The notes below the pieces were generated by a model, which was given only the letters and a program-made list of their open reading frames with translations, did not search any database and had not been told where the DNA came from. 51,439 bases of DNA from the NCBI GenBank assembly GCA_963579235.1, contig CAUZFM010000003.1:1-51439 (forward strand), read 5' to 3'. The stretch comes from an uncultured Candidatus Binatia bacterium. GTDB lineage: Bacteria > Desulfobacterota > Binatia > UBA1149. Positions 1-42,540 of this stretch are shown piece after piece (position 1 is the first letter of the stretch; every line of letters begins with the position of its first letter). Both the position numbers and the translations under genes were made by a program.

Positions 1-3000
1 CCCAGTAATCGCCGGGATTCATGCCCGGTGGTGGTGCTACAGTTCCAATGGAGATGTTTCTCGACGGCATATCGGAGGGATGGTTCATGCCACCAGCTAT
101 GGGGTCACTGAATAAATCACTCAACACTGGGATTCCTCCGTTCGGGGTGTGTCCGCTGATCCAGTTGGCCTGGGAGCCGGCCACCCTACGCTCCATTGCC
201 AAGTGATACGGTCCTATCCCCCCGGTTCTGTGACCCGTCAGGTGAACCACATCGGTTACCCGCGTATCACCGGTATTTCCGGGTGACTGGCCGCCACCAC
301 CTACACTCGTAGCAACCTCGTCGGCTGCTGCCAAGGATCTGCTGCCAGCTTGTGCGCTATGCGGCGCTTGGCCCCAGGCAAGGCCGCCCATGGCAAGGAA
401 AACTCCGCCCACGTCGCCCTGGGCACCGGCCCGGGCGGTGGTGGCCAGGTTGAGTGTTTTTGACAGGGCAGCGGCCGCCGTGGCGTTGCCCAGAGTCGCC
501 ACTTTGAACACCGGTTGCAGCAGCATGCCCTGCACGCCGGTGGCCGCCAGCCCCGAGCTGATGAAGCTGGCCATGCCCGCGCGCATGCCCGCTCCCAGGT
601 CGCCGCTCTTGACGGTGGCCTGCAAGGCGCTGACGATACCGCTGGTGGCCGCCCAGTTGAGCACGGCGGGCAGGGCAGGAAAGAAAAAGCCACCGTCGGG
701 GTCGGTGCCATTAAGGGGGTCCCAGGCCCCGTAGGCCCGCGGGTTGGCAAACTGGCCCTCGGGGTCAGGCGACAGGAACTGGCGGGTGGCCGGGTCGTAC
801 CAACGCCGCCCGAAGTCGACCAGCCCATGGCTGATCTCGGAGCGCTGGCCGGTAAAGCCCCAGCGGCTGCTGGAGTGGGTGGTCTCCAAGGCGACCAGGC
901 TACCGTCGGCCTCGCGCTGGTATACGGCCAGCGTCTGCCCCCAGGCGTCGTGGCGCAGGTAGCGCAGTGGCTGGCCGTCCTGGTCGCTTATGAGCCGCGT
1001 AGAGCCCAGGTGATCGACGTGGTAGTAGACCGTTTGCCCGGCCGGCGGCCATGCTGCTTGTTGGCCGTTGGCTGCAGGCGTGTACCTTTCCAGCGACAGG
1101 CCGTCGGGTGCGGCTACGCGATCGGACGCCACCAGTCGGCCCGCGAGGTGGAAGTAACGCAGCAGCTGGCCGCCCTCTATTTCGAACAACACCGCGCCGC
1201 TGTGAGTCGCGTATACCTGCGACCAACTGCCGTACTGCGCGTCGTAGCGACCCACCCGTGCGCCTCCCTGGTCAAGCGCGTAGCGGATCTCGTGGCCAGA
1301 CTCCGAAACACTCGAAACGAGGTTGCCCTCCATGTCCCAGGCCAGCGTTGAGTCGCCCTTGCTGCTTCGCCGGCCGTTGGCGTCCCAGCCCAGGGCGAGC
1401 CCGCCGGCATTGACGAGGCGGTGGGGGCGCAGCGGGTCGTAGAGCCAGGCCTGACCGTTGGACGCGGTCATGTTACCCAGCGAATCATAGGCAAACTGCT
1501 CGGTGCGGCTCGAGCCAGACCCCTGTTGGTAGGTGAGTTCCCGCAACCGCCCGAGTTCGTCGTAGCCGCCAAGGCCCGCTACTGGGCCGGCTGTACCCAC
1601 GCGCAGGCTCTCGTCGAGCTGCTGACCGGCCCAAAGCTGGTCGAGCAGTTCGAGAATACGGCCCTGTTGGTCGCGCGACCCAACCCCGACCGCCCGCAGG
1701 TCGCCGGGCTCAACGCCGCAGTTGGCCAGGCCCTGTTCGTGGGCCGCGGTGGGGCTGCTGCGCCAGCACCTGGGGTAGGCGTTTTGAGAAGGTGGCAGGT
1801 ACTCCAGGTGGTCGTTCAGCCCGTTGCCATACTCTATTCTTGTCGTGTTGCCCCAGGCGTCGTGCTCGACGGCCGACACCAGGGGCTTGTCGCCCAGCGA
1901 CAGGCCCAACACGCGCCCGAGCACCGAGTAGCTGGTCTCAAGTTTTTCGACCAGCATCTGTCCAGCCGAGTTTGCCGACGGGTAGCCCACCGACAGCACG
2001 CGGCCCGACTTGTCGTACTCGTAGGTCACCATGTAGCGCGACCGCGCTCGGCCGGTTCGAAGCCGTATGTCTTCTGAGGCCACCAGCCCCAGTTCGTTGT
2101 AAGCCAGGCGGCGATCCACCTTTGATTCGCCGCGCTTGGACTTGACCCTTTCCAGTTGGCCTTCACCCACGCGCCCGGCCCCGACGTAGCGGTAACCCTG
2201 GCGAAGCTTTTCGGTGCCGCTGCGGCCCTTGCGTTTCCGCACCCGGCCGGCGTTGTCATAGCGGGTCACGACCACTCCGCGCCTGGGCGACAGCGTCGCT
2301 CCTTCGTGCACGGGGTCGACGAAAGAAAGCACGCGCCCGGCTTCGTCGCGCTGGTACAGCCAGGTGCCGGTGTCGAGGTCATCGCGGCGAAGGAGCTTGC
2401 CCGAGCCGTCGTACCAGTTGCGTTCGTAGAGTATCGGCTCGGCGGGTTGGCTTTCGAGTCGCCACAACCAGCGCTCAGTTACGCGCCCGAGCGCGTCGTA
2501 TGCGACCTCGCTGCGCGACAGCAGCTGGCTGTCGGGGCACTGGTCGCCTGCTTCGAGCAATGGCAGAACCGCGCAGGATTCGCTGCGCGTCACACGTCCG
2601 AGTGCGTCGAGGTATTCCAGGCTGACCTGGCCCGCCAGCGAACCGGCAGCCATGTTGGCGTCGACCCTGGCGCGCACTCCAGCCACCGAACCCACGAAAA
2701 GTGTTGTCGAACCGTCGGGCAGGGTGGAGCTGAGCAGGCTCCCGGAGTGCAGCTCGTAGCTCCAGCTACGATGGGTTTCGGGGTCGGACGTGGCAAAGGT
2801 CTCGTCGAGCGTGAGCAGGCCGGCGTGGCTCGTGGGGCCCGTGTTCACCGGGTCTTCAAAGGGTAGCGCTTCGGCCGTTACCCGGCCGCTGCTGTCGTAG
2901 GACTTGAGGCCGCTCAGCAGGCTGTTGACGGCAATGCCACCAAGCCGCGCTGTCTCGGTGCGGGTCGCGACCTCGCGGCCCAGACCGTCATAAAAAATAA

Positions 3001-6000
3001 CTGAATCGGGCTTTCCCCAGCCGCTTAGCTTTACGTGCCCGCGGGTCGAAGTGCAGGGGCCACCGGCCGGTTGGCACTGGGCCAGGGGTTGCTGGTAGCT
3101 GGTGGTGTTCGTCGGCGCCTCGGCGGTCAAAAAAGCGGGCGTCCAGTTTCTCGCCGAGCGGCCCAGCCCGTCGTACTCGTTGCGCACCCTCCGGCCGTCG
3201 CCCGAGGTCGATTGCAGCAGCAGCCCGGCGGCTGCGTCGTAGCTCAGGTAGGAGCGGTTTCCGCCGGCTGTTTTCTCGACGGTCGGGTAGAGTTGCCACG
3301 GCCCCCCGTAGGCGATCGTTCGCAGGCCGCCGGTAGGCAAAACTTCCCTGCTCAGGAGGCCATCCGAGTTGTAGAAGAACGAGTTGGCCGACCAGCGGGA
3401 GCAGTCGCCCTGTTGGTCAAAAGCGAGACAGCGCGATTCAGACGCGAGTTCGGCCTGGGGCCCGTACTGCCAGCTACTGTCGCTGAGCGGTGTGCCGGAC
3501 TCCTGGTTTTCAAACAGGCGCAGCCGCGACGGGCGGCTCACAACCCGTGCGCCCTCGAGCGTATCAGGGTCGAGCACCGGAACTCCTGCCGGTAGAAATT
3601 CGCCCACGCTTATGACCGAGGCGATAGACGGCGAATGTTTTTCGCGGCGCGTTTCGTTGCCGTGCTGGTCGTACTGCCACAGCGTGGTCAGTACCAACGA
3701 GTTGAGCGGGCACGATGTGGAGCCGCAGGCCGAGTCAGCGCGGTAGGGCGTGGTGACCTGGGAGACGGGGGCCAGTGGTGCCGCGCCCGCCAGCAGCAGG
3801 GTGGGATCGGGCCACTGGGTTGCGGTCTCGTCGAGCAGGTAGTTCCAAGGGTCGCAGGCCGGTCCCGGGGGGGGACTGGCGGCCGCCGCGCAGGCGGGGT
3901 TTCCCAGGCGCAGGCTGCGGTAAACCTTGCCCTTGCGCGCCGTGTCCTGGTGGAAGTACGTAAAGCGGGCCAGTCCGGATGGCTGTAGGGCCACGGTACT
4001 GGCAAAACCCTGGAATTCGCGCCCGGCGGAGTCCCAGCTGGCACCGCGATAGGCCCAGCTGCTGGTGACGGGAGTGTTGTTGACGTCTATGACGTCAAAC
4101 AGCGTGCGGCGGCTGAGCGTCCACAAGGGAAACGGCAGGCACTTGCCCGAAAGCCGCTTTCCCTGGGCGTCGTACTGGCAGGCTTCGTCATCCTGCATAG
4201 AGACCGGGCTGTACTCGAGCTGGGTAACTCCGCCAACGCCGTTCTCCATGACCACCATTGCTCCCGGGCGGGTGCGCAGGTGGTCGGGGGTTGCTGACCA
4301 GCCGGCCCTGGGCGAAGCCGGGTTGAGGTGAACCTGCCAGCGGTTGCTGCCGTCGGGTTGGCGGTGCAGTTCGACCAGGTCCACCAGGCCGTCACCGTCA
4401 AAGTCGAGCAGATCGTGGTTCAACTGCGGCGAGGGAGCGGGAACCGCGGGGGGCGTGGAAACAAGACGCAGGCGACCGCTATCGCTCCACCAGGCAAGCG
4501 GCTGTGGGTCGGAGAACCCGGATCCATTGTTCACGAACAGGTAGTTGTTCAGGCAGCAGATCGGCGGGGAGACTACGTTGAAGGGGTCGGCCTGGCAGGC
4601 CGCCTCGCCGTTGATGCAAAGCAGTACGTCGAGATGTGCTTGCCCGCTGCCGGTTATGGGCGCGACCAGGTCGGGCAGGCCATCGCCGGTTATGTCGACC
4701 AGCTCCTGCGAGGCAGTGGAGCTGCTGTGCACCGAGTTCGACAGCGACTGGTCGTGGCTGATGTAGTTGGCCAGCAGCGGCTCATTTCCCCCTGGGCCGC
4801 CGTTGCCGCCGGGCCCCCAGCTGCGAGCCTGGCTTTCGAAGCCGCTGCCGTTGTTGAAGTAGACCAGCCAGTGCTGTTCGGACATCTCCTGCGGTGAGTA
4901 GTTTCCCGTCGCGTTGGGCCAGGTGCTGGGTGCCGCATCAACGAAATCGGGTAGGCCGTCGCCGTTTATGTCTATAAGTCCGCTGACCAGGTAGCCCTGG
5001 TCGCCCGGGCTGTGGCGTTGCATGATCCAGGCCCGCGGCGCGGCAAACTGCGATGGCACGGCTGAAAAACCCGCGCCGGTGTTCCAGTGCACGGTCCACC
5101 AGGGGCTGGCCGTGCTCCACGGCCAGCTGGCCACCCAGTCGGGCAGGCCGTCGCTGTTGAGGTCCACGATTTCAACGTGCACGCGGTCTCCGTTGGAGTC
5201 GGCCTGGCGGATGTCGAAGCTGGGCGCGGGCCAGGCCTGCGGCGCAAGGCTGAATCCGTTGCCGGTGTTGCGGTGCAGGCACCAGGCCGTCGGCAGCCCC
5301 GGTCCGCTGCAGAGGTTGGCCTCGTCGGCCTCCACGTAGTCGGGCAGGCCGTCACCGTCGAGGTCAAAAATGTTGTGCTGTATGTTCGAGGCCTGGTCTA
5401 TGTCCCTGATGTTGTTGAGAACGGGTGACGGCCAGTCGACCGCGAGGTCAAACCCTCGGCCGTTCCCGCGACGCAGGGTGACCTCGTCGCCGCCGGTTTC
5501 GAGCTGGTCCACGAGCCCGTCGCCGGTCATGTCGAGCAGCTCGAGTTTGGGTTCTCCTCGCGGGTCGCGGATGCGGTCGGGCCCGTCAAAACTGATGGCG
5601 TAATTGGCTCGCTGCTCGAGGCTGCCCAGCGGCCAGCCGGTCTGCAGGGTGGGAGCGTAGGCGAACACCGCCGGTGGCATGGTGACGTCGTCGGCCGGGC
5701 TCGCACCGGTGCCCTCAATCCAGCCAAAGCCTGTCAGGCCCACCGACTGCAGCAGGGCCGCACCGGTAACGGCGTCCACGGCGTGGGTGAGCTCGTAGCG
5801 ACGAACCTGTCGCTCTTCTACCCAGGTGCTGATGCTGCCGAGCAGCACGCTGGCTTCGCGACGAAAACCGGCCGAGTAGTCAGCTCTCGGCTGGTCGGGG
5901 TACAGGCGAGGCGAGTAGTCGAAGCGGAGCTCTATGAAGTTGGCTATCTGCTGGTTGCCGCCGTAGCGCACAGCGAGAGGCAACAACTCACCTTGGCCGA

Positions 6001-6697
6001 AGAACTGCCAGTCGTAGTCGATGCTGTTGCCGAACAGGTCCTCGGTTCTCAGGATGACCCAGGCGAAGGTGCCGTCGGCCTGCAACGGGTCGGGACCTAT
6101 TCGGCCGGCACCGCTGTTGTTACCAGCACCGCCCGTAGCGCCGAACCAGTGGACCAGCCCGGTCGGATCAAAGACTTTCCAGAGATTGGCTTGCTGGTCG
6201 AAACCCGCGCGCAGGGCCGACTCTCCGTGGGCCGGCCGGTACAGCCGGCCCTGCCCGGGCACGAGCCGGATCGAGGATCCCCCCATCTCGAGTACGAAAC
6301 TGTCTTGGGTGTCGTAACGCGGGACGCCGTGCGTGGTGGAGCGGTGCAGCCTGGCAGCCGTCATACTCCAGCCGCGACCCCAGGCACCGCCCGGCGACGA
6401 GGACGACGCGCTGTTGTAGCCTAACCCGAGGCTGGGGGTGAGACTGCCGCGGCCCGGGGGGAGTTCGATGGGCAGGCCCACGGTGGCCGAGCCCGTGAAC
6501 AGGTCGGCCGAAGGGTCGGCGGCCATGGAGGCAAAGGGCGCCGAGCCATCGCCGGTCTGTGAGCCCGAGGCCCCGCCGGGTGTCGGGTAGGACTGCTGGG
6601 CGTTGCTGCTGCCCGGTGTGCCGGCGCTGGCGAGCAGCACTGCCAACAGGGCGTTCAAGAACAGCCGTCGCGACTTGCCCTTGGCCCGCGGCTTCAA
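1..6697 (-). CDS. Secreted SpvB/FG-GAP/YD-repeat RHS polymorphic toxin (TcB-TcC fusion-like); 3' end runs off the window
   Basis: Manual minus-strand translation from TTG at 6697 gives MKPRAKGKSRRLFLNALLAVLLASAG (signal-like), then ADLFTGSATVGLPIELPPGRGSLTPSLGLGYNS (SpvB N-terminus). Several DxxGDGLxD FG-GAP motifs lie at ~4370-5530, followed by YD repeats and the RHS core YYHVDHLGSTRL...GFTGQ...RWYDPATRQFLSPDP...DPLNGTDPDG (DPDG at 692-703). The same frame is open at position 2, and the ORF track reports no stop-terminated ORF in this frame. Confidence 0.92.
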   Translation of the reverse strand, partial: MKPRAKGKSRRLFLNALLAVLLASAGTPGSSNAQQSYPTPGGASGSQTGDGSAPFASMAADPSADLFTGSATVGLPIELPPGRGSLTPSLGLGYNSASSSSPGGAWGRGWSMTAARLHRSTTHGVPRYDTQDSFVLEMGGSSIRLVPGQGRLYRPAHGESALRAGFDQQANLWKVFDPTGLVHWFGATGGAGNNSGAGRIGPDPLQADGTFAWVILRTEDLFGNSIDYDWQFFGQGELLPLAVRYGGNQQIANFIELRFDYSPRLYPDQPRADYSAGFRREASVLLGSISTWVEERQVRRYELTHAVDAVTGAALLQSVGLTGFGWIEGTGASPADDVTMPPAVFAYAPTLQTGWPLGSLEQRANYAISFDGPDRIRDPRGEPKLELLDMTGDGLVDQLETGGDEVTLRRGNGRGFDLAVDWPSPVLNNIRDIDQASNIQHNIFDLDGDGLPDYVEADEANLCSGPGLPTAWCLHRNTGNGFSLAPQAWPAPSFDIRQADSNGDRVHVEIVDLNSDGLPDWVASWPWSTASPWWTVHWNTGAGFSAVPSQFAAPRAWIMQRHSPGDQGYLVSGLIDINGDGLPDFVDAAPSTWPNATGNYSPQEMSEQHWLVYFNNGSGFESQARSWGPGGNGGPGGNEPLLANYISHDQSLSNSVHSSSTASQELVDITGDGLPDLVAPITGSGQAHLDVLLCINGEAACQADPFNVVSPPICCLNNYLFVNNGSGFSDPQPLAWWSDSGRLRLVSTPPAVPAPSPQLNHDLLDFDGDGLVDLVELHRQPDGSNRWQVHLNPASPRAGWSATPDHLRTRPGAMVVMENGVGGVTQLEYSPVSMQDDEACQYDAQGKRLSGKCLPFPLWTLSRRTLFDVIDVNNTPVTSSWAYRGASWDSAGREFQGFASTVALQPSGLARFTYFHQDTARKGKVYRSLRLGNPACAAAASPPPGPACDPWNYLLDETATQWPDPTLLLAGAAPLAPVSQVTTPYRADSACGSTSCPLNSLVLTTLWQYDQHGNETRREKHSPSIASVISVGEFLPAGVPVLDPDTLEGARVVSRPSRLRLFENQESGTPLSDSSWQYGPQAELASESRCLAFDQQGDCSRWSANSFFYNSDGLLSREVLPTGGLRTIAYGGPWQLYPTVEKTAGGNRSYLSYDAAAGLLLQSTSGDGRRVRNEYDGLGRSARNWTPAFLTAEAPTNTTSYQQPLAQCQPAGGPCTSTRGHVKLSGWGKPDSVIFYDGLGREVATRTETARLGGIAVNSLLSGLKSYDSSGRVTAEALPFEDPVNTGPTSHAGLLTLDETFATSDPETHRSWSYELHSGSLLSSTLPDGSTTLFVGSVAGVRARVDANMAAGSLAGQVSLEYLDALGRVTRSESCAVLPLLEAGDQCPDSQLLSRSEVAYDALGRVTERWLWRLESQPAEPILYERNWYDGSGKLLRRDDLDTGTWLYQRDEAGRVLSFVDPVHEGATLSPRRGVVVTRYDNAGRVRKRKGRSGTEKLRQGYRYVGAGRVGEGQLERVKSKRGESKVDRRLAYNELGLVASEDIRLRTGRARSRYMVTYEYDKSGRVLSVGYPSANSAGQMLVEKLETSYSVLGRVLGLSLGDKPLVSAVEHDAWGNTTRIEYGNGLNDHLEYLPPSQNAYPRCWRSSPTAAHEQGLANCGVEPGDLRAVGVGSRDQQGRILELLDQLWAGQQLDESLRVGTAGPVAGLGGYDELGRLRELTYQQGSGSSRTEQFAYDSLGNMTASNGQAWLYDPLRPHRLVNAGGLALGWDANGRRSSKGDSTLAWDMEGNLVSSVSESGHEIRYALDQGGARVGRYDAQYGSWSQVYATHSGAVLFEIEGGQLLRYFHLAGRLVASDRVAAPDGLSLERYTPAANGQQAAWPPAGQTVYYHVDHLGSTRLISDQDGQPLRYLRHDAWGQTLAVYQREADGSLVALETTHSSSRWGFTGQRSEISHGLVDFGRRWYDPATRQFLSPDPEGQFANPRAYGAWDPLNGTDPDGGFFFPALPAVLNWAATSGIVSALQATVKSGDLGAGMRAGMASFISSGLAATGVQGMLLQPVFKVATLGNATAAAALSKTLNLATTARAGAQGDVGGVFLAMGGLAWGQAPHSAQAGSRSLAAADEVATSVGGGGQSPGNTGDTRVTDVVHLTGHRTGGIGPYHLAMERRVAGSQANWISGHTPNGGIPVLSDLFSDPIAGGMNHPSDMPSRNISIGTVAPPPGMNPGDYW

Positions 6698-7044
6698 TTG
6701 TTTTCTCTTTTGCTGGTCGGCCGGGGAGCGGTATCAAAGTAAACCGATAGGTCCCGGCTGCTGGAGTGCAGGCGCTCGGCGACCCGCCGGTCATGCTCAT
6801 CCTCAACGCGCTTGAGCAGAAAACGCAGGCGCGCGAGGTCCTGGGCGTTTTCGTCGAAGGCCAGGCGGGCCTCGCCTCCGCCAGGCGAAGCCGGCTGCAT
6901 GGCCAGTGGGCCGGTCACGAGCCGCTGGTGGCCGTAAGATGGCGTGGGCAGGGCAAGGCCTGCGACCAGAAGCCCAACGGCCAACAGGTCGGAACTTAGA
7001 GTAGCGGCTCGGGGGAAGCCTGCGTGCTGATTGATTGCTTTCAT
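6694..7044 (-). CDS. Small hypothetical exported/membrane protein (116 aa) coupled to the RHS gene
   Basis: ATG at 7044 is preceded by GGGAGAG. The protein has a hydrophobic stretch (LLAVGLLVAGLAL) followed by a charged helical region. Its TGA overlaps the RHS TTG start (TTGA overlap). Confidence 0.6.
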   Translation of the reverse strand: MKAINQHAGFPRAATLSSDLLAVGLLVAGLALPTPSYGHQRLVTGPLAMQPASPGGGEARLAFDENAQDLARLRFLLKRVEDEHDRRVAERLHSSSRDLSVYFDTAPRPTSKRENN

Positions 7045-8275: not shown

Positions 8276-8986
8276 TCAGCCCCAGGCGTTGCTCTCATAC
8301 CAGCGCATATAACCAAGCACCCGGCTGACGTGCTGCCGGGTTTCGCGATAGGGCGGCGTGGTGTTGCCGTAGCGGCGCACGGCGCCCGGGCCGGCGTTCC
8401 ATGCCGCTGCCAGGAGGTCGTAACGCTGTTCGAAGCGGTTTATGTGCATGGTGTTGATGTAGCTGGCCAACAGCAGGTTTATGGCGGGGTCAAACAGATC
8501 CGATTCGTTGAATTCGCGCAGTTGGGCTTTGTCCACGTACAGGTAATCGCGTCCATCGGCCGCAAGTCGGCGCGCGGCGGCCCTCGCCGTGGCCGGCATG
8601 AGCTGGGTAAGCCCGCGGGCTCCCACCGGCGACACGGCGTCGGCCCGGCCACCAGACTCGGTAAGAACCAGGGCCCTGAGATAATTGCTGGAAATGCGAC
8701 GGTCAGAATCGCCCCAGGCCAGCGAAGAGTAGTAGCGCAGCAGGTGCTCGTAGCGGTCGAGCCTTGCGACTTGATGCCGGCCGGGTGCCAGGCCTGCCCG
8801 TGGGGCGGGGGAGACGTCGGCTTGTCGTTTGGCCATAACCCGGGCCACCGAGGGAAGGCGTCGCTGGCCTTTAATTTCGAGCTCACCGCGGGCATCGGGA
8901 AGGCCGGTAGCCCAGGGCGACTCGGCCAGCAGCAGGCAGGCCGCCAGCAGCAGGGTGGCCGATCGCCGTTTGGGAAGGTGAACCAT
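8276..8986 (-). CDS. Lytic transglycosylase (SLT domain) with signal peptide
   Basis: ESGG...AVSPVGARGLTQLMPATA, AAWNAGPGAV and PPYRETRQHV motifs. Start uncertain (8986 or 9013). Confidence 0.9.
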   Translation of the reverse strand: MVHLPKRRSATLLLAACLLLAESPWATGLPDARGELEIKGQRRLPSVARVMAKRQADVSPAPRAGLAPGRHQVARLDRYEHLLRYYSSLAWGDSDRRISSNYLRALVLTESGGRADAVSPVGARGLTQLMPATARAAARRLAADGRDYLYVDKAQLREFNESDLFDPAINLLLASYINTMHINRFEQRYDLLAAAWNAGPGAVRRYGNTTPPYRETRQHVSRVLGYMRWYESNAWG

Positions 8987-10248: not shown

Positions 10249-11241
10249 TCAGTAAGCGTAGCTGGTTGGAGCTTCGTAGTTTTCTTCGCGGTTGCGTCGG
10301 AGCTTGGCCACCAGGGTGGTCCGCTTGAGTCCGAGCAAGCGAGCAGCGGCCTGCTTGTTGCCGTTGGTGCGCCGCAGGGCCTCGTCGATGAGCCTGTTCT
10401 CAAACTCGTTGACGGCCGCGTTAAGATCGAGCCCGTCGTCGTTGAGCTGCGTTCGCGGAATCTTTTTCTGCGGCAGGAAGGCCGAGATGTTGCCGGGCAG
10501 GTCGGCGGGCTTCACCATGGGCGAATCGGCTAGTACCGAAAGGCGTTCGATGGTGTTTTCGAGCTCGCGCACGTTACCCGGCCAGTCGTATTCCCACAGC
10601 AGCACCATGGCTTCTTCGGAAATAGTCAGCGGGTAAGGCCGCGCCTCGTTGTGGATGCGCAGGAAATGCTCAATGAGTATGGGTATGTCCGAGCGACGCT
10701 CGCGCAGGGGAGCGATGGTCACCGGTATGACCTGCAGGCGGTAGTAAAGGTCCTCGCGGAAGCGGCCTTCCTCGACCTCGCGGGTCAGGTTCTTGTTGGT
10801 GGCCGCGACTACCCTGACGTCGACCTTGAAGGGCATGTCGGCGCCGACCGGCCGAATCTCGCGATCCTGCAGCACTCGCAGCAGCTTGACCTGCAACAGC
10901 GGGTCCATCTCGCCGATTTCGTCCAGGAAAATCGTGCCCCCATGGGCCATTTGAAACATGCCCGGCCTTTGCCCTACGGCACCGGTAAACGAGCCCTTCT
11001 GGTGCCCGAACATCTCCGACTCGAGCAATCCGCCGGGGATCGTGCCGCAGTTGATGGCCACGAATGGCTTGTCGGCGCGCGGGCTGAGGGCGTGCAGGCG
11101 CGCAGCAACCAGCTCCTTGCCGGTGCCGCTTTCGCCGCTTATGAGCACCGTGGCGTCGGTGCGACCCACCTTGCCCAGCAGGTGATGCAGCTGCTGCATG
11201 AGCGGATGCGTACCTATGATTTCGTTCTTGTCTTCGTTCAT
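10249..11241 (-). CDS. Sigma-54-dependent transcriptional activator (AAA+ plus Fis-type HTH, no N-terminal regulatory domain)
   Basis: GESGTGKE Walker A, GSFTGA loop, FLDEIGE Walker B, WPGNVREL and C-terminal HTH ([16 protein letters not shown]). The AAA domain begins about 8 residues after the Met. Confidence 0.92.
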
Positions 11242-31901: not shown

Positions 31902-34900
31902 GTGAACAGGCCCTGTACTCTCTGCGTGGGACTACTGCTGGTCGCGGGCGTTGCCGGCGCGCAACCCCTGGACAAATCTTCGCAGGCCTGCGTCAACGCT
32001 ATGAACAAGGGCGCGGCCAAGGTTTCGGCGGTCCAGGCAAAAGAGAACTCCGGTTGTATTAAGCAGGCCGCGCGCCAGGAACCTGCCGGGACAGGCGCCG
32101 AGGCCTGTCTGGTGGCCGACCAGCGGGGCAAGATCGCGCGTGCACAGGCCAAGAACCTAGCGGGCGAGACCCGCAGCTGCGACGTCACACCCAGCTTTGC
32201 CTACAGTTCTGCGGAGGGAGTCAACGAGGCCGCCGCGCGTGAAACGATCGCGCTGATGCACGACGTGTACGGCCAGGACCTGGACGCGGCCGTGGTCGGC
32301 AAAGACGCGGACCGCAACGGGGCCACCTGCCAGTTGAGCGCCGCCAAGGGATCGGCCAAATTGCTGGCGGCTGTTTCTCGCGAGTTCGTTGATAACAAGA
32401 AGAACGGTCTGCGCGATGAGAGTTTTGCCGACGCGGCCTCGCTGCAGCAGGTCTGCTTCGACGCGATCAACAATGACCAACGCGGCAAGATCGCCCGCGC
32501 CGAGCAGAAGCTTGCCTCGCTGCTTGAAAAAAAATGCGTCGCCCGTGGGGTCGACCTGGCGGCGGTCCTGGCTGGACAGTGCGCCGGCGAAGCATCCAGC
32601 GGCTCTTCGGCGGCGGCTGACTGCGTCGAGGCGAGGGTACGCTGTCGAGCTTGCCGCCTGTTCAACGACGCCGATACTCTTGAGCAGGACTGCGACCTGT
32701 TCGACAACGGCGCGGCTGACAACAGCTGTCCCGTCTGTGGCAACGGCGTGGTGGAGGCCGGCGAAGAATGCGACGACGGTGTCGAGACTGCCACCTGCTA
32801 CGCTGACTGTACGGCGACCGCCTGTGCCGACGGCACTTGCGGCCTTGGCGAGGATTGCGGCAACTGCGCGGCCGACTGTGGTTCGTGTTGCGGTAACGGC
32901 AGCTGCGACAGCGGCCTGGGCGAAGACTACGTCAGTTGCCCGTCCGAGTGCGAGGCCCCGGGCAACTGCGACGTTGCTACCCCCTGGCAGGACATAGCAC
33001 CCAGCCTGCTGGGCATAACCGACCTGTTGCCGTCGCTGCCCGACACGCCGCTGTCTGTTGCCTGGCCCGACCCGCTTCCGACTTTTCTCTCCGACACGCT
33101 GGCGCCCACCGATCCTCCCCTGGGTTGGGTACCCGATGATTCCACCTGCGACGTGTCGGTGAGCTGGGACGCCGATCGCGTCGAGGCAGGACCCATCAAG
33201 GACTACGCCGGCGATCCCCACTGCCGTGTCACTCTCACCGACCACCCCACCAACGGCAACGCTCTTTTCTTCGCTAATCGCTGGCCCGGTGGCAGTATAC
33301 ACATACCAATTTCGGGCGATCCGACCTGGGCACAGTTTCGCTTTCCGCTACCGCCCGCGCACCGGGCGGTGCGTCTCAACTACAGGATCGCCTGGGCGCG
33401 CCTGTTCGGCAGCCAGCCCGACCCCTGCCACGCCGACGATACCGACGAGCTGGGCAACTGCATTCCCAAGTACAAGGAGGCCGCCGAGGACTGGAGCGAA
33501 AATGTTCCACCCGGGCTGTTCCTGTTGTGGGGCAAGGCGGGCAACTGCCAGGGCTACCTGGTTACCGGTCCGCACGACCCGGCGGCCGACATTTCTTACT
33601 CGGGAGCAGAAACCTACAGCGTGGAAGTACCAGAGTCCCTGCAGACGGTAGACGAACTGGTGGTGGCGGCGTTCATATACCGCCAGTACCCCGGCGGGTG
33701 TGACGGGGCCAACTGCCTGTCGGGACGCTTCGTGTACAACAGCATGGCAATACAGGACCTAACGCTGGACACCGAGGAAATCTTTAATCCTCCCTCGCTA
33801 CCGGCCCTCGACCACCCGAGGTTGTTCGGGGCGAACGAGCAGTGGCTGGCCGGCCAGGAAGTCTTCAACAACCTGCCCTGTTACTACGCGCCCAATTACG
33901 AGGAAGGCGCGGGCTGGGGCTCGGTAACAAACATCCGTAACATGTGGGACGTCTATACCTGGGGCGGCAAGGTCTGCAACGGCGAGGACCCCGTGCTCAT
34001 CGAAGACCATCCCGACGCGGCTCCTTACCTGGACGGTACGGCTGCGGGCAACTGGAACGAGGACCGAGCTATCCGAGTGCTGCATCTGCTGCGCCGCGTG
34101 CGCGCCTGCCACGAGCAGGGTGGCGGTGGCTGCCAGTTTTCGCTGGCCGATATCGACGCGCTGGTGGCACAGTTCATAGCCGTGGAGATCGCCCGTTTCG
34201 GTGACTGGACCTGGGAGAACCAGAGCCTGGTGTTCGACCTGGGGACGCTCCCGCCCATGCGCTACTGGTCGATGTTTGCCGATACCCTCTGGGATGACCT
34301 GTCGCAGGCCGACCACGACACCATAGCCATCGAGATGGGCAGCCGCATAGATGTCTTCCTCCAGCACGCCGAAAACCACCACTGGGCGCTGTACAACGGC
34401 AACAACTGGACGCCGGTGTTGTCGCTGGCCGCCATGTACTGGGCGATTACCTACTACCACGAGGACCCCCGTGCGCCGCAGGTGGCGCTGACCGCGCTCG
34501 GGGTGTTGTGGCTGCACCGCGATTTCTACCTGGCCGACGGCGCTTACAAAGAAGGGCTGATGATGTACACGCACGTGTCCTTCGACAACCTGCGGCAGAT
34601 CAATATGCTGTCGCGCGCGACCTTCGGCGAGCCCATCGACAGCGTACGCTGGGACCGCATGCCCGCAGTGAGTCAGTGGGCGCTGGAGTTCCTGGCACCC
34701 GACGGGCTGACGGTGGACTACGGCGACTCCTGGGCCAAGCGCGGTTGGTCGACCTTCATGCCCCTGTACATGGCCATGGCATCGGAGCTGATCGGGCAGG
34801 GGCCGGCGACCGTCGATCCCTGTACGGCGCGGGCTTACTTCAACAATCGCTGGTTCGACTGGGGCCTGCGCAATCCCTTTACTATTGATGCTTCGCTTGC

Positions 34901-35987
34901 GCGTGACTGGGTGGCGCTGGTCGAACAGTGCTCCGCGGCTGCGCTGGCCGGTACCCACGTGACCGTGCTGGAGGAAGGCGGCTGGGGCAACATCCGCGTG
35001 GGCCTGCCCGGCTCTACGGTCACGGCCACGCTGGGCGATGTTGAACAACGCTACGAGCAGGCCGACCAGACCTTCCTGTCCGTGAGCGCTATCCCCAACA
35101 CCTTCCCTCACACCGAGCTCGACTTCGGCAGCCTGGTATGGGTGGCTTACGGCACGCGACTTCTGGCCGACCTCGGTTACGGCTCGATTGATATCGGCTA
35201 CGGCATTCCACCCGACTATGCTCCTGACAACAACCCCACCGGGCACAATACACTGGTGGTACCCGAGGCCCTGTGGGACGGCGACCCGTCGACCAACACC
35301 AGCCAGGTGGAAGACACGCCGGGCAGCATAGAGAGCCTCAACGTTTCGGGCGTCGAGCTACTGCACCTCGACGGTGACGCGGTTTATGGGCGTGACGATC
35401 TGGACGATGGATGGCTCGATACCTTTGACCGCTGGCTGCTGCCGCTCGATGGTGGGCACTTCGTAGTCATCGATGGTTTCCGGGTTAGAGCCGACCGGCC
35501 TGACAGCAGCGTGCAGGAGTACTGGCACACCTACGACATACTCACGCCGCCGGCCGCGGCAGACTGCCACTACACCAGCCAGCACGTCGAGATTACCTTA
35601 CCCGACCCTGGCCGCCTGCATCTGCTGCCGGTCTGCAGTTCGCTCGACCGCTATGGCGCGGCCGAGAGCGCCGGCGAAATTGTCGGGGCCGCGCTCGCCG
35701 CCGGCGGTTTCGTCGTGGACGCCCCCTTCGAGTTTCTCAACCGCCTGGGCGTTACCGAGCGCAGGGGCCGCGCGCGCTGGGTTCCCGACCAGGCGCTACG
35801 CTCCGACCTGCGGGTATTTCTGCTGCTGGCTGCGCCGTCCGAAGTCGCGCTGCCGTCCGCCACGATCACCCAGGATCCCTGCGCGGCTGACAGTTGCTTC
35901 CAGGTCAGTATCGGGGCCGACACCTGGGAGCTGTCCTTCTCGGGGCAGGACGGGGTCTACGACCTGCTCAGTGTCGTCCAGCAGTGA
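31902..35987 (+). CDS. Large secreted protein: Cys-containing helical N-domain, Cys-rich repeats and heparinase II/III-like polysaccharide lyase domain
   Basis: Signal peptide; CGNGVVEAGEECDDG (myxobacterial-type Cys-rich repeat); C-terminal NNWTPV, DGAYKEG..Y, DYGDS, HTELDFGS..W...RLLADLGY and GHNTLVV motifs as in heparinase II/III-family lyases. Confidence 0.75.
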   Translation: MNRPCTLCVGLLLVAGVAGAQPLDKSSQACVNAMNKGAAKVSAVQAKENSGCIKQAARQEPAGTGAEACLVADQRGKIARAQAKNLAGETRSCDVTPSFAYSSAEGVNEAAARETIALMHDVYGQDLDAAVVGKDADRNGATCQLSAAKGSAKLLAAVSREFVDNKKNGLRDESFADAASLQQVCFDAINNDQRGKIARAEQKLASLLEKKCVARGVDLAAVLAGQCAGEASSGSSAAADCVEARVRCRACRLFNDADTLEQDCDLFDNGAADNSCPVCGNGVVEAGEECDDGVETATCYADCTATACADGTCGLGEDCGNCAADCGSCCGNGSCDSGLGEDYVSCPSECEAPGNCDVATPWQDIAPSLLGITDLLPSLPDTPLSVAWPDPLPTFLSDTLAPTDPPLGWVPDDSTCDVSVSWDADRVEAGPIKDYAGDPHCRVTLTDHPTNGNALFFANRWPGGSIHIPISGDPTWAQFRFPLPPAHRAVRLNYRIAWARLFGSQPDPCHADDTDELGNCIPKYKEAAEDWSENVPPGLFLLWGKAGNCQGYLVTGPHDPAADISYSGAETYSVEVPESLQTVDELVVAAFIYRQYPGGCDGANCLSGRFVYNSMAIQDLTLDTEEIFNPPSLPALDHPRLFGANEQWLAGQEVFNNLPCYYAPNYEEGAGWGSVTNIRNMWDVYTWGGKVCNGEDPVLIEDHPDAAPYLDGTAAGNWNEDRAIRVLHLLRRVRACHEQGGGGCQFSLADIDALVAQFIAVEIARFGDWTWENQSLVFDLGTLPPMRYWSMFADTLWDDLSQADHDTIAIEMGSRIDVFLQHAENHHWALYNGNNWTPVLSLAAMYWAITYYHEDPRAPQVALTALGVLWLHRDFYLADGAYKEGLMMYTHVSFDNLRQINMLSRATFGEPIDSVRWDRMPAVSQWALEFLAPDGLTVDYGDSWAKRGWSTFMPLYMAMASELIGQGPATVDPCTARAYFNNRWFDWGLRNPFTIDASLARDWVALVEQCSAAALAGTHVTVLEEGGWGNIRVGLPGSTVTATLGDVEQRYEQADQTFLSVSAIPNTFPHTELDFGSLVWVAYGTRLLADLGYGSIDIGYGIPPDYAPDNNPTGHNTLVVPEALWDGDPSTNTSQVEDTPGSIESLNVSGVELLHLDGDAVYGRDDLDDGWLDTFDRWLLPLDGGHFVVIDGFRVRADRPDSSVQEYWHTYDILTPPAAADCHYTSQHVEITLPDPGRLHLLPVCSSLDRYGAAESAGEIVGAALAAGGFVVDAPFEFLNRLGVTERRGRARWVPDQALRSDLRVFLLLAAPSEVALPSATITQDPCAADSCFQVSIGADTWELSFSGQDGVYDLLSVVQQ

Positions 35988-40662: not shown

Positions 40663-42540
40663 TCAGTTTTTGGCTTTGGCCTTGAACAAGTCCGCCGTGT
40701 TCTTGCGTATGTGGGTGCCCGTGAATGAGCTCGTCCAGCAGGTGCCCGTGTCGTTCACGAGTTGCACCACCACGCTGTCGTCGGCCGCGAAGTAGGCGGC
40801 GACCGAGTCAGGGCCGGGAATCGGCAATCCCGAGCCGCGGCCCTTGAGCTGGGCCTTGCCGCGTCCCGCGCTACCCGCGGCCACTTTGACCTGCTGCACG
40901 CCGTCCTGGGCGCCGCCCTTGTCCTTGTAGCTGCACTTACTTCCCTTGCACTTCCAGGCAGAGGCCGAGGGCGGTACGAGGAGTTCGATGACGAGCTGCG
41001 TAGACTGGGAGACACTGTCGTACACGCACAGCATGTAGTCGGTGTCGCCCGCCGGGGTGCCCAGGTCGGCCACGGTGAGCGCTGTGCCCTTGGCCAGCTT
41101 CCATTTTAACTTGTCTTTGGACGCCAGCGCGTGATCACGAAGATGGAAGCTTGTCACCGCTCCAGTGCTGCAAGAAGGCAGCGGCGCTGCCGCGCAGGAG
41201 GGGGCCGGGGGGGGCAGGGTAGTGGTCGTAGTCGTAGTCGTTGTCGTGGTCGTGGTCGACAGCGTGGTAGTCGACGCGCAGTTGAGCGGTCCGGGGGTGC
41301 ACGTCCCTGACTGGCAACTGTCTCCGCAGGTCAGAAAATCATCGTCATCGCAGGCGCTGCCATTGACCAGTGACGGGTCGGAACACAGGCCGGTTATCGT
41401 GTCGCACACGCCGGCCGCGTGGCACTGGTCGCTGGCCAGGCAGCTCACGGCCTGGTCCACGCACAGCCCGTCGGTGGGGTTGCAGGCGCTCGCCGTACAC
41501 AGGTCGGGTGCGTTGCAGGTCGTCGTGCTCGCTGCTGTGCACAGTCCACCCTGGCAGGTCTCGCCCGTGGTGCAGGCGTTGAGGTCGTCGCAGGCCGTTC
41601 CGTTGGGGTCAGCGCAGGGCAGCAGCGAGTCGGTGGGGATGGCGGCGGCCGCGTTCGCCGTGGTCGCGTTGCTTGCCCCCAGCACCGGGTTGCCGGTGAT
41701 GCTCGAAACAAGGTCTACCGTGGCTGCCGAACGAGTGGCCGAACGAGTAGTGGCCACGCTCATGCCCCAGGACAGCCCCTGCTTGCAGCTCGCGTAGGCG
41801 TCGCCGGGTATCGGCGGGGTGAAATTGAAATTGCTGAAGATCGAAGCGTCGGAGCCGCAGCTGTCCACCAGGGCGATGTCGACTTCGCCGCCCACCGTGG
41901 AGTTGACCACCAACTGCAACACTGAACTCGAAGTACCATCCCCTATCACCGTGACCTCTACGGGTCCGTCGAAGTCGCCACCCTCGTGATTCCTCGACGA
42001 CATGACGGCGCGAAACTGGTTGGCGCCAGCGTACAGCGTCGCCAAGCTGGCCTGGTAGAATGAATTCCAGCTCATCGCCAGGTGCAGGGTGACCGTGACC
42101 GGTGTTCCCACGGTCAGCGTGGATGACTGCACCGCAATTGTGTCCCAGTACTGCACGTAGGCACCGCCGTTGTAGCTGTCGTTGTCGCAGGACCACAGGT
42201 TCTCGTTCTCCGTGCAGGTGTTAACGCCTATGCCGTAGTGGGAGATGCCCATGGCTGCGGCCGGTAGTACAGCCGACGCCGTAGAACCGCCGGTTATGGC
42301 CTGGACCGCGAAGGGGGCGCTCGACACCGTGCCGTTGCCCGCTGGCAGGAAGTTCAAAAACAGGTCCGACTCCTGGACGATAGTGTTGCCGTCGATCACA
42401 CGGAATGCCGCGCTGCCGACCAGGCGCAATTCGGCCCGGGCGGGCGTGGCGGGGCCCGCGATGGCGGTCAGCAGTAACGAGACGATCAGCACTGACAAGC
42501 TGCTGAGCTTACGAGGAGTGGTTGGTATAGAATCCGGCAT
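40663..42540 (-). CDS. Secreted/surface protein with Cys-rich repeats, Thr linker and Lys-rich C-terminal domain
   Basis: Signal peptide ending ARA; CDDLNACTTGETCQGGLC-type repeats; poly-T linker; C-terminal KLKWK...Y.LCVYD...WK...YKDK...VQLVN...CW domain. Confidence 0.78.
   Translation of the reverse strand: MPDSIPTTPRKLSSLSVLIVSLLLTAIAGPATPARAELRLVGSAAFRVIDGNTIVQESDLFLNFLPAGNGTVSSAPFAVQAITGGSTASAVLPAAAMGISHYGIGVNTCTENENLWSCDNDSYNGGAYVQYWDTIAVQSSTLTVGTPVTVTLHLAMSWNSFYQASLATLYAGANQFRAVMSSRNHEGGDFDGPVEVTVIGDGTSSSVLQLVVNSTVGGEVDIALVDSCGSDASIFSNFNFTPPIPGDAYASCKQGLSWGMSVATTRSATRSAATVDLVSSITGNPVLGASNATTANAAAAIPTDSLLPCADPNGTACDDLNACTTGETCQGGLCTAASTTTCNAPDLCTASACNPTDGLCVDQAVSCLASDQCHAAGVCDTITGLCSDPSLVNGSACDDDDFLTCGDSCQSGTCTPGPLNCASTTTLSTTTTTTTTTTTTTLPPPAPSCAAAPLPSCSTGAVTSFHLRDHALASKDKLKWKLAKGTALTVADLGTPAGDTDYMLCVYDSVSQSTQLVIELLVPPSASAWKCKGSKCSYKDKGGAQDGVQQVKVAAGSAGRGKAQLKGRGSGLPIPGPDSVAAYFAADDSVVVQLVNDTGTCWTSSFTGTHIRKNTADLFKAKAKN

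Follow-up and report, generated by a model that had tools for sequence, protein, structure and literature searches.

A predicted single-chain RHS cocoon with a putative Sec signal and an exchangeable toxin-type tip in an uncultured Candidatus Binatia bacterium

The window analyzed here, a stretch of 51,439 nucleotides, is the entire contig CAUZFM010000003.1 (C3) of a metagenome-assembled genome (MAG) of an uncultured Candidatus Binatia bacterium (GCA_963579235.1; 2.58 Mb in 161 contigs, 92.6% complete, 1% contaminated), and its left end is occupied by a very long gene for an RHS-repeat protein, the subject of this report. A preliminary description of the window, made from its letters alone, had proposed that such a gene runs off the contig without a stop codon. 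Open-ended reading-frame calling and translation bear this out: positions 2..6697 of the minus strand form an uninterrupted frame of 2,232 codons, which opens with TTG and is stop-free to the first base of the window, and no in-frame stop or frameshift was found within positions 1-6697. The GC content at third codon positions (GC3) of this frame is 0.80, like that of the real genes of this 64%-GC genome. A protein of 2,300 residues from other assemblies (P0002, on contigs of up to 74.8 kb) is 100% identical to it across all 2,232 residues, and another contig of the same genome (C10) opens with the last 21 codons of P0002 and their stop (positions 3-68). As the window is the whole contig, the gene is truncated by assembly rather than by biology; the window carries the first 97% of its 2,300 codons, and only about 47 codons (~141 bp) fall in the assembly gap. 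The start of C3 shares no k-mer of 21-127 bases with any other contig, and the link between C3 and C10 is made via P0002. The 3' side of the gene, which the preliminary description had placed outside the window, indeed lies beyond C3 but could be recovered from C10: it holds a 176-codon open reading frame (ORF; 82..612) with a lipoprotein signal (LLTG followed by Cys), which is a candidate immunity gene, then a carotenoid-oxygenase-like gene on the opposite strand and a thiol peroxidase gene.

The domains that had been proposed from the letters, namely SpvB, FG-GAP, YD/RHS repeats and a core ending in DPLNGTDPDG, were all recovered at their places by Pfam and NCBIfam models (Table 1). The SpvB region (residues 69-139) additionally matches the YenB structures 4igl, 5kis and 9c4k in a PDB sequence search (E ~2.5e-10). 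The FG-GAP_3 model (PF13517) matches residues 445-522 (E 2.8e-11, two stretches), and an alignment of 25 homologs displays invariant D/G columns of the propeller at residues 389-397, 445-453, 512-520, 576-584, 668-676 and 765-773. In the shell that follows, Pfam detects RHS_repeat (E 4.5e-12) and DUF6443 (residues 1231-1303). The Rhs_assc_core model of NCBIfam spans residues 1918-2002, and R1965, D1968, D1978, D1999 and G2002 are invariant in the alignment of 25 family members. Residues 1891-2010 align by HMMER to the cores of SGS1 and SGS4 (E 3e-7 to 5e-7) and to that of TcdB2-TccC3. In this alignment D1999 pairs with Asp2729 of SGS1, and the SGS1 cut site, between residues 2733 and 2734, pairs with the junction of G2003 and F2004, so that the autoprotease is likely to cut after G2003, between DPDGG and FFFP, yielding a predicted cargo of about 297 residues. 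A family search returned 161 matches at E<=1e-3 among 7,994 scored candidates: two orthologs at 69-70% identity, about thirty homologs at 30-35%, and a tail with the same Pfam string. The earlier idea of a Tc B+C cocoon in one chain fits both these domain matches and the conserved Arg/Asp/Asp residues, and to judge by sequence the protein very likely works like the BC cocoon of Tc toxins.

Table 1. Features of the RHS toxin gene and of the region just upstream, by position in the window
Feature	Residues	Position	Strand	Basis or remark
RHS toxin gene	1-2232 of 2300	2..6697	-	Open frame; identical to full-length P0002
Predicted Sec signal peptide	1-33	6599..6697	-	n, h and c regions; SRRLFL motif resembles Tat motif
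SpvB/TcaC N-terminal domain	68-145	6263..6496	-	Pfam PF03534, E 2.3e-16
FG-GAP/integrin-like beta-propeller (boundaries approximate)	~385-780	4358..5545	-	PF13517 and repeated DxDGDGxxD motifs
TcdB_toxin_midN	756-908	3974..4432	-	PF12256, E 3.2e-17; genome search finds the same place
RHS/YD-repeat shell	909-1917	947..3973	-	RHS_repeat, DUF6443, YD_repeat_2x
Rhs-associated core, predicted aspartyl autoprotease (R1965/D1978/D1999)		689..946	-	TIGR03696, E 6e-13
Pre-toxin stretch	2004 to ~2110-2140	278..688	-	Gly/Ala-rich, low-charge, hydrophobic; GDLGxG motif
Toxin tip, first 92 residues of 156	tip = 2145-2300 of P0002	2..277	-	Predicted permuted NlpC/P60 (LRAT-like) fold
Upstream ORF, 116 codons		6695..7044	-	Signal-peptide-like or membrane-anchor-like N-terminus; TGA stop overlaps RHS TTG start (TTGA)
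Direct repeat, 36-40 bp, one copy inside upstream ORF		6832..6867	-	Second copy G000:C10:630-665 (locus L060), just 3' of immunity gene

The signal-peptide-like N-terminus noticed earlier reads MKPRAKGKSRR-LFLNALLAVLLASAG-TPGSSNA followed by QQ, with recognizable n, h and c regions: six K/R fall within the first 11 residues, the best 10-residue Kyte-Doolittle mean is 2.61, and small-x-small cleavage sites are available after residue 25 (ASA 23-25, followed by G) or after residue 33 (SNA 31-33, followed by Q). Of the 120 listed homologs, 72 pass a crude test for such a signal, which asks for K/R ahead of a 10-mer with a hydropathy above 2.0. Among the 46 closest homologs 31 have a conserved TGD block, and 28 of these 31 have a small-x-small site after the hydrophobic stretch, mostly 9-23 residues upstream of the block in close relatives. 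The more distant, canonical homologs start with ISLPKGGGA..GIGEKF, with nothing before it and no signal peptide.

The predicted cargo has two parts. The first, the pre-toxin stretch, consists of 36% A+G and only 7% charged residues, and its mean hydropathy is +0.73 as against -0.43 for the shell. It is conserved between orthologs with different tips: the P0003-type and P0004-type loci match each other here at 95-97% identity, and the window at about 65%. The motif G-D-L-G-x-A-L-x-A-G recurs in the pre-toxin stretches across the family. A hydrophobic cargo start, defined as a 17-residue mean of 1.25 or more and scored in homologs in which the core end was found and the cargo comprises 150-400 residues, is present in 36 of 51 signal-peptide homologs and in none of 14 canonical ones (Mann-Whitney p = 5e-7, the kin not being independent); another 18 sequences were unclassified, and from the initial 120 we dropped 31 with no core match and six for cargo length. 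Searches with the cargo against Pfam, NCBIfam and PADLOC gave no match, and the ESM Atlas returned unnamed clusters with a best score of 0.83, which is uninformative.

The second part of the cargo, the toxin tip, is matched by no Pfam model. An exhaustive HMMER search recovered 206 members of a tip family at E<=1e-3, 113 of them at E<=1e-10; in the best 150 of the 206, whose proteins range from 44 to 2,604 residues, the tip is matched at the C-terminus or close to it. The 28 carriers that were scanned comprise seven with SpvB/FG-GAP/TcdB_midN/RHS, five with plain RHS, one PAAR protein of 266 residues (P0225), three with weak FG-GAP only, and twelve with no match. P0230, P0247, P0268 and nine others (~410-640 residues) carry the same tip with no Pfam match or a weak FG-GAP match; on the sequence scans, the carriers of ~500-600 residues appear to constitute a shorter, unclassified delivery architecture.

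The invariant columns of the tip are H21, D65, N116 and S117, corresponding to H2165, D2209, N2260 and S2261, of which the last two lie beyond the window. An AlphaFold model based on 51 sequences (predicted local distance difference test, pLDDT, 91.3; predicted template-modeling score, pTM, 0.87) was compared with known structures by an exhaustive structural aligner, which returned Aichivirus 2A (Z 7.6), CLN5 (6.7), the Vibrio type VI secretion system (T6SS) effector TseH (6.3) and PLAAT4 (5.9), followed by DUF862 (5.6), the Bacillus cysteine peptidase 3kw0 (5.0) and YiiX (4.7). Seven of the top eight matches are permuted papain-like (Z 4.7-7.6 over 99-125 residues, identity 5-13%), and these seven we take to form the permuted NlpC/P60 or LRAT-like group. 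In the model S117 opens a long helix (117-128) and the invariant His lies on an early strand; the start of this helix is where the permuted NlpC/P60 fold carries its Cys. The His...Cys catalytic pair (NC motif) is thus not found in the tip, in which the His is kept and the Cys position is Ser. On the strength of the fold matches and of the invariant H21 and S117 at the helix start, we read the tip with moderate confidence as a Ser/His variant of the permuted NlpC/P60-like hydrolase/acyltransferase fold, its activity being a prediction from the model.

Comparison of related loci indicates that this tip is exchangeable. Three orthologous shells at 69-70% identity carry three unrelated tips, here termed A (that of the window), B and C. 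P0139 of locus L056, which falls in a cluster of at least 90% identity with P0003, bears a window-like tip (52% identical to P0002 over the last ~340 residues), and G044, a genome from the same genus, has tip B. A few bases downstream of each tip there is a gene for a small exported protein specific to that tip: for tip A a lipoprotein of 176/177 residues with a lipobox G21-C22 that is invariant in five of five type-A sequences, for tip B a different lipoprotein of 140 residues, and for tip C a protein of 143 residues with an N-terminal membrane helix. None of these candidates matches a family in Pfam, NCBIfam or PADLOC. The tip-C locus (L057) additionally contains an orphan copy, 60-odd residues long, of the RHS core end and the pre-toxin start. 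For the gene of the window, GC3 is 0.81 across the shell and only 0.61 across the tip, with 0.48 for the last codons of the tip and 0.66 for the immunity gene. Taken together, the tip swaps, the matched exported partners, the orphan fragment and the GC3 break point to a polymorphic toxin in which recombination swaps the tip together with its immunity gene as a cassette. The lipoprotein downstream of the gene is likely, from its sequence and position, to be the immunity factor of tip A; the exported nature of the immunity proteins suggests an envelope-facing target, and the lipoprotein candidate on C10 suggests that other bacteria are the most likely victims.

At the tip-C locus positions 8636-8972, located 3' of the immunity gene, are occupied by the truncated orphan RHS copy and by a remnant of the carotenoid-oxygenase gene, namely its final ~34 codons, and the locus is, as judged from this arrangement, rearranged. 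We found no support for the idea that tips B and C share the H...C/S fold of tip A, as hhalign gave the tip-A profile a probability below 1% against P0003 and P0004; tip B has a sub-threshold match to Lnb_N (E 0.0074). In two relatives that are more distant (L086 13815-15161 and L008 15724-17400, both on the plus strand) the RHS toxin gene is succeeded by one for a larger protein of 448-558 residues; the two are similar to each other, that of L086 has a signal-peptide-like start, and they may represent another immunity type.

We then considered which partners the protein could have. The preliminary description had seen no TcA, VgrG or PAAR gene on the 5' side, and this side indeed contains only housekeeping genes (GT9 heptosyltransferase, SLT, DUF4254, sigma-54 activator, RNase PH, Ham1 and others), with no secretion gene among them; both flanks consist of housekeeping genes in conserved synteny. 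Nor did such genes turn up elsewhere: profile searches of the 92.6% complete genome found no TcA_TcB_BD (PF18276), no VRP1 (PF03538), and no Phage_GPD/VgrG (PF05954), PAAR (PF05488) or VipB/TssC (PF05943), positive controls having matched for these last three. As a control for TcA, we ran the search on five other genomes carrying fused genes. The TcA domain was found in all three whose fused genes have no signal peptide (Derxia gummosa, a Gaiellaceae MAG and an actinomycete MAG), and in neither of the two with signal-peptide-type genes. Its coordinates place it directly 5' of the fused gene in Derxia and in the actinomycete, and in the Gaiellaceae MAG it was scored at the level of the whole genome. 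Within the bacterial class, TcdB_toxin_midN occurs in 34 of 151 sampled genomes, mostly in frames of ~2,000-2,700 codons, and TcA_TcB_BD in three; a single genome (G007) has both, and in the other 33 of the 34 with fused genes no TcA domain was found. In the order to which the window belongs, 14 of 19 genomes have a fused gene and none of the 19 has TcA. The fused protein of G007 (2,488 residues) starts with MSDKSGTSSQVISLPKGGGAIKGIGETF, has no signal peptide and continues after the core with hydrophilic sequence, and a 2,144-residue TcA-like gene adjoins its gene. In a quick FastTree tree (109 sequences, first 1,100 residues, midpoint root, supports not considered) all 27 canonical N-termini, including that of G007, fall in one clade, and signal-peptide sequences fill the other deep branches. 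The TcdB_toxin_midC domain (PF12255), which the canonical group has, gives no match in the window protein at E<=0.01 and is not in the domain list of P0002. With no TcA partner and no TcdB_toxin_midC region found, and with a predicted export signal where canonical Tc components have a cytoplasmic origin, the protein is, on these sequence grounds, not a member of a Tc ABC complex.

The G007 locus (L084, G007:C85, 3168-17335, minus strand) is a natural BC fusion with a TcA-like gene, in the order BC then A. Environmental Tc-type loci with a TcA domain (L065-L067), from Derxia gummosa and two actinobacterial MAGs, likewise combine a BC fusion with a TcA-like gene.

These observations lead us to propose that the RHS gene probably encodes a Sec-exported single-chain cocoon, which encloses a cleaved cargo of ~297 residues and acts as a TcA- and T6SS-independent antibacterial polymorphic toxin with lipoprotein immunity. 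This agrees with the suggestion in the preliminary description that the protein may be exported by Sec and use another way of delivery. The signal peptide would take the unfolded chain through SecYEG, and the chain would fold in the periplasm into a closed shell like that of TcB and TcC; D1978 and D1999 would then cut after G2003, the cargo remaining enclosed, with its hydrophobic Gly/Ala-rich segment first and then a Ser/His hydrolase of the permuted NlpC/P60-like kind. The particle might exit the producer through type II secretion system (T2SS)-type secretins and pseudopilins, in vesicles or by lysis. At the target cell the hydrophobic segment would insert into the membrane and expose the tip to the envelope, where peptidoglycan or phospholipid might be its substrate, and kin would be protected by the periplasmic lipoprotein. 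The genome has genes for TatC, for two GspD-type secretins (one beside a GspC gene) and for a pair of GspG pseudopilins; of two further secretins, one lies in a Tad pilus locus. A path by Sec and then T2SS is thus formally available. It is further conceivable, if rather doubtful, that signal-peptide single-chain cocoons are self-sufficient delivery devices in which Gly/Ala-rich helices stored in the shell serve as a translocator of their own and replace TcA. They would then correspond in bacteria to mosquito SGS1, and the BC clade that depends on TcA would have branched off from this older lineage.

A number of points weigh against the proposed Sec-exported antibacterial cocoon. A cocoon of the size of TcB-TcC is wider than the channel of a secretin, and among the secretion genes of the genome we identified no route across the outer membrane of the producer. 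The signal-peptide calls are heuristics based on composition and motif criteria, and the counts that associate signal peptides with missing TcA and with hydrophobic cargo starts come from kin that form clades and are not independent events. With 161 contigs and 7.4% of the genome missing, the absence of TcA and T6SS genes is not proof. The pre-toxin stretch is moderately hydrophobic, its best 19-residue Kyte-Doolittle mean of 1.40 lying below the usual membrane-helix threshold of 1.6. As for the tip, Foldseek with the model finds nothing at E<=1e-3 (the best match being CLN5 at E 0.29), the fold matches are all below Z 8, a range that can reflect common arrangement alone, and the residue at the helix start is an invariant Ser (YNSNS) rather than the Cys of the family, which is unusual. 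The structure model of the tip-A lipoprotein is poor (pLDDT 56.7, all-beta), and there is no RNA run among the sequencing runs holding the sampled words of the RHS gene.

Several other interpretations can be weighed on the same evidence. The parts of the protein, SpvB, TcdB_toxin_midN, propeller, RHS and core, are those of TcB and TcC, so that it could be the BC component of an ordinary Tc (ABC) toxin whose TcA gene lies in the unassembled 7% of this 161-contig, 92.6% complete MAG, and natural tcB-tcC fusions adjoining TcA do exist, both in the control genomes and G007 and as mentioned in the text of PMC7861908. We consider this very unlikely: canonical Tc components are described as being without export signals in the text of PMC10847048, while the window protein and its close family have one; TcA adjoins the fused gene in G007, Derxia and the actinomycete, while the flanks here are syntenic housekeeping genes; no TcA domain was found in 33 of the 34 genomes of the class with fused genes or in any of the 18 other genomes of the order; and the separate clade of canonical N-termini and the lack of a detectable PF12255 argue in the same direction. 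That many Rhs toxins are T6SS cargo, and that one carrier of the same tip family is the small PAAR protein P0225, might suggest a T6SS Rhs effector. This is extremely unlikely in a genome in which VipB/TssC, Phage_GPD/VgrG and PAAR were not found by searches whose controls all matched, and for a protein with a signal peptide and an SpvB/propeller N-terminus in place of PAAR or prePAAR. A different export path is suggested by the SRRLFL at the N-terminus, which is close to the twin-arginine (Tat) consensus and is shared with P0003: the cocoon might be folded already in the cytoplasm and pass the membrane in that state through a Tat system, for which the genome has a TatC gene, and the N-terminus has a weak match to a PsbQ transit-peptide region (E 0.037). 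However, the 69%-identical ortholog P0004 has no RR, and no Tat-signal model of Pfam or NCBIfam matches the N-terminus at E<=10, which makes a Sec signal the better reading of the predicted export sequence. The strongly hydrophobic h-region (2.61) also favors Sec, and a folded particle of ~250 kDa is far above known Tat cargo, so that Tat export appears quite improbable.

As to the target, the proteins of solved structure that are most closely related to the shell (Tc toxins, SGS1 and teneurins) act on eukaryotic cells, and the phospholipids on which LRAT/PLAAT-like folds act are present in every membrane. The organism is planktonic and marine (at least half of the sampled words of the RHS gene are contained in each of 20 DNA runs, from seawater or marine samples of 17 studies, and eight of the 20 may be where this DNA comes from), and cell contact is rare in such a setting. 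The toxin might accordingly be aimed at eukaryotic grazers or hosts, the lipoprotein protecting only the periplasm of the producer during transit. This is nevertheless unlikely, as tip swapping with matched immunity genes and the orphan fragment mark interbacterial polymorphic toxins, the same tip also occurs on a PAAR protein, and TseH, a structural match of the tip, is a T6SS effector directed against bacteria. That the gene encodes not a toxin but a protein of the surface or of adhesion, similar to teneurins, could be imagined from the YD shell common to teneurin-like proteins and from weak PDB matches (9pt5 and 9ifo, E 0.02-0.04); yet variable tips with matched downstream genes, and a C-terminal tip family found on RHS and PAAR carriers, misfit an adhesin, and in the text of PMC9935623 teneurins are without the last catalytic Asp, which is present here as D1999 and invariant in the family. 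There is hardly any probability left for such a role, and the Sec-exported antibacterial cocoon is the interpretation that we retain.

Upstream of this predicted toxin gene, the same 4-nt overlap between the small ORF and the RHS gene recurs at L056, L057, L059 and L085, and the ratio of nonsynonymous to synonymous substitution rates (dN/dS) of the ORF is 0.31-0.43, with in-frame indels; its sequence thus indicates an ORF translationally coupled to the RHS gene through TTGA and under mild purifying selection. It matches no family in Pfam, NCBIfam or PADLOC. A positional counterpart exists at L008, where the locus is syntenic and the RHS protein is only 33% identical; the upstream ORFs of L015 and L008 share with the small ORF of the window the position and a signal-like N-terminus, and inspection by eye showed no sequence similarity. 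When 897 neighboring ORFs from 22 loci were clustered, no family occurred in more than four loci, and the shared ones were synteny genes of the Binatia group. The L008 RHS locus shares the gene order of the window (GT9, DUF4254, the RNase PH/Ham1 side and the enoyl-CoA hydratase side), which suggests that its genome, titled 'uncultured Myxococcales', may be closer to Binatia than this title implies.

The two copies of the direct repeat are identical at 35 of 36 positions (E 1e-13, blastn), and its 26-mer core occurs at only these two places in the genome. L056 has the same pair (~3191-3230 and 10782-10820, 39 of 40 identical). In the two tip-A loci the unit of RHS and immunity genes is thus flanked on both sides by the repeat, which the tip-C locus L057 lacks; recombination may have left it as a scar, or it may be what remains of a tandem copy. 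Elsewhere in the window two long ORFs, one of 1,361 codons (31902-35987, plus strand) and one of 625 codons (40663-42540, minus strand), have a GC3 like that of coding sequence and match no Pfam model at E<=1e-5.

Tc toxins and T6SS Rhs effectors are well studied, and the form of cocoon with a signal peptide is common, to judge by the fused genes of 34 of the 151 class genomes, 33 of them with no TcA found. It raises the questions of how a particle of ~250 kDa leaves a diderm cell and of how its cargo enters a target without a syringe. As a test case the locus is compact: a single large gene is accompanied by the small ORF coupled to it and by a matched lipoprotein, and close relatives supply natural variants of the tip. 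The locus also adds an unnamed toxin-tip family of 206 matches that is apparently a Ser variant of the LRAT/NlpC-P60 fold.

The architecture itself, as judged from its domain string, is not new. Zhang, de Souza, Anantharaman, Iyer and Aravind (2012) delineated by comparative genomics a 'TcdB/TcaC' class of polymorphic toxins (PMC3482391, Table 1) with the string of signal peptide, SpvB, integrin-like β-propeller, RHS repeats, variable C-terminal toxin and immunity gene, and in Table 2 of that paper 'TcdB/TcaC' is an export pathway for many toxin domains and is thus widely spread across toxins. The window gene shows every feature of this class as it is given there, and its predicted product is a new member; the class is a comparative-genomics category, and Binatia is not in the phyletic list of PMC3482391. 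The tip family is seemingly not named in the main text of that paper, in which the fold and motif terms are absent. In our literature searches no experimental work on an SpvB-RHS cocoon with a signal peptide in a diderm came up. Three points go beyond the literature found: the association of signal peptides with a lack of TcA and with hydrophobic starts of the cargo, the tip family of Ser type, which has no name and is paired with predicted lipoprotein immunity, and the coupled upstream gene.

With respect to canonical Tc toxins, the text of PMC10847048 has them without export signals and released by lysis through a type X secretion system (T10SS), and natural tcB-tcC fusions receive no more than a passing mention from Song et al. 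(2021), in whose text (PMC7861908) the term 'signal peptide' does not occur. The Tc BC structures (YenB/YenC2, 4igl; TcdB2-TccC3, 4o9x and 6h6e) resemble the window protein in SpvB, TcdB_toxin_midN, propeller, RHS shell, Arg/Asp/Asp core and a cargo of ~300 residues. Unlike them, the window protein is one chain rather than two, with a predicted signal peptide, no TcA found, no TcdB_toxin_midC detected, a cargo that starts hydrophobic, and a candidate immunity gene. The permuted NlpC/P60 proteins (H-box/NC, LRAT-like: PLAAT4, picornavirus 2A(H/NC), CLN5, YiiX, DUF862 and TseH) are structural matches of the tip model, in which a Ser stands in place of their Cys. WapA-type Rhs toxins of Gram-positive bacteria combine a Sec signal with a downstream immunity gene and serve in interbacterial competition; in contrast to the window protein they have no SpvB/TcdB/propeller half, and their monoderm producers have no outer membrane to cross. 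The mosquito salivary gland surface proteins SGS1 and SGS4 (8fjp and 9on3) share with the window protein a single-chain Tc-like shell and an aspartyl-protease core, and give the best PDB sequence match to this core, and in the text of PMC9935623 the SGS1 cargo consists of predicted membrane helices inside the shell and then a terminal toxin-type domain. Unlike the window protein, SGS1 is eukaryotic, comprises 3,364 residues with extra lectin and carbohydrate-binding module (CBM) domains, and has neither a classical signal peptide nor an immunity partner. In Tse5 of Pseudomonas aeruginosa, as described in the text of PMC10684867, the Rhs shell chaperones a membrane-inserting C-terminal fragment, self-cleavage is needed and the immunity gene lies next door; Tse5 differs in riding on VgrG and the T6SS, and in having no SpvB/propeller half and no signal peptide. 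SGS1 and Tse5 demonstrate that helices able to insert into membranes can be kept inside an Rhs shell, and by analogy they would be the best mechanistic counterparts for the hydrophobic half of the cargo.

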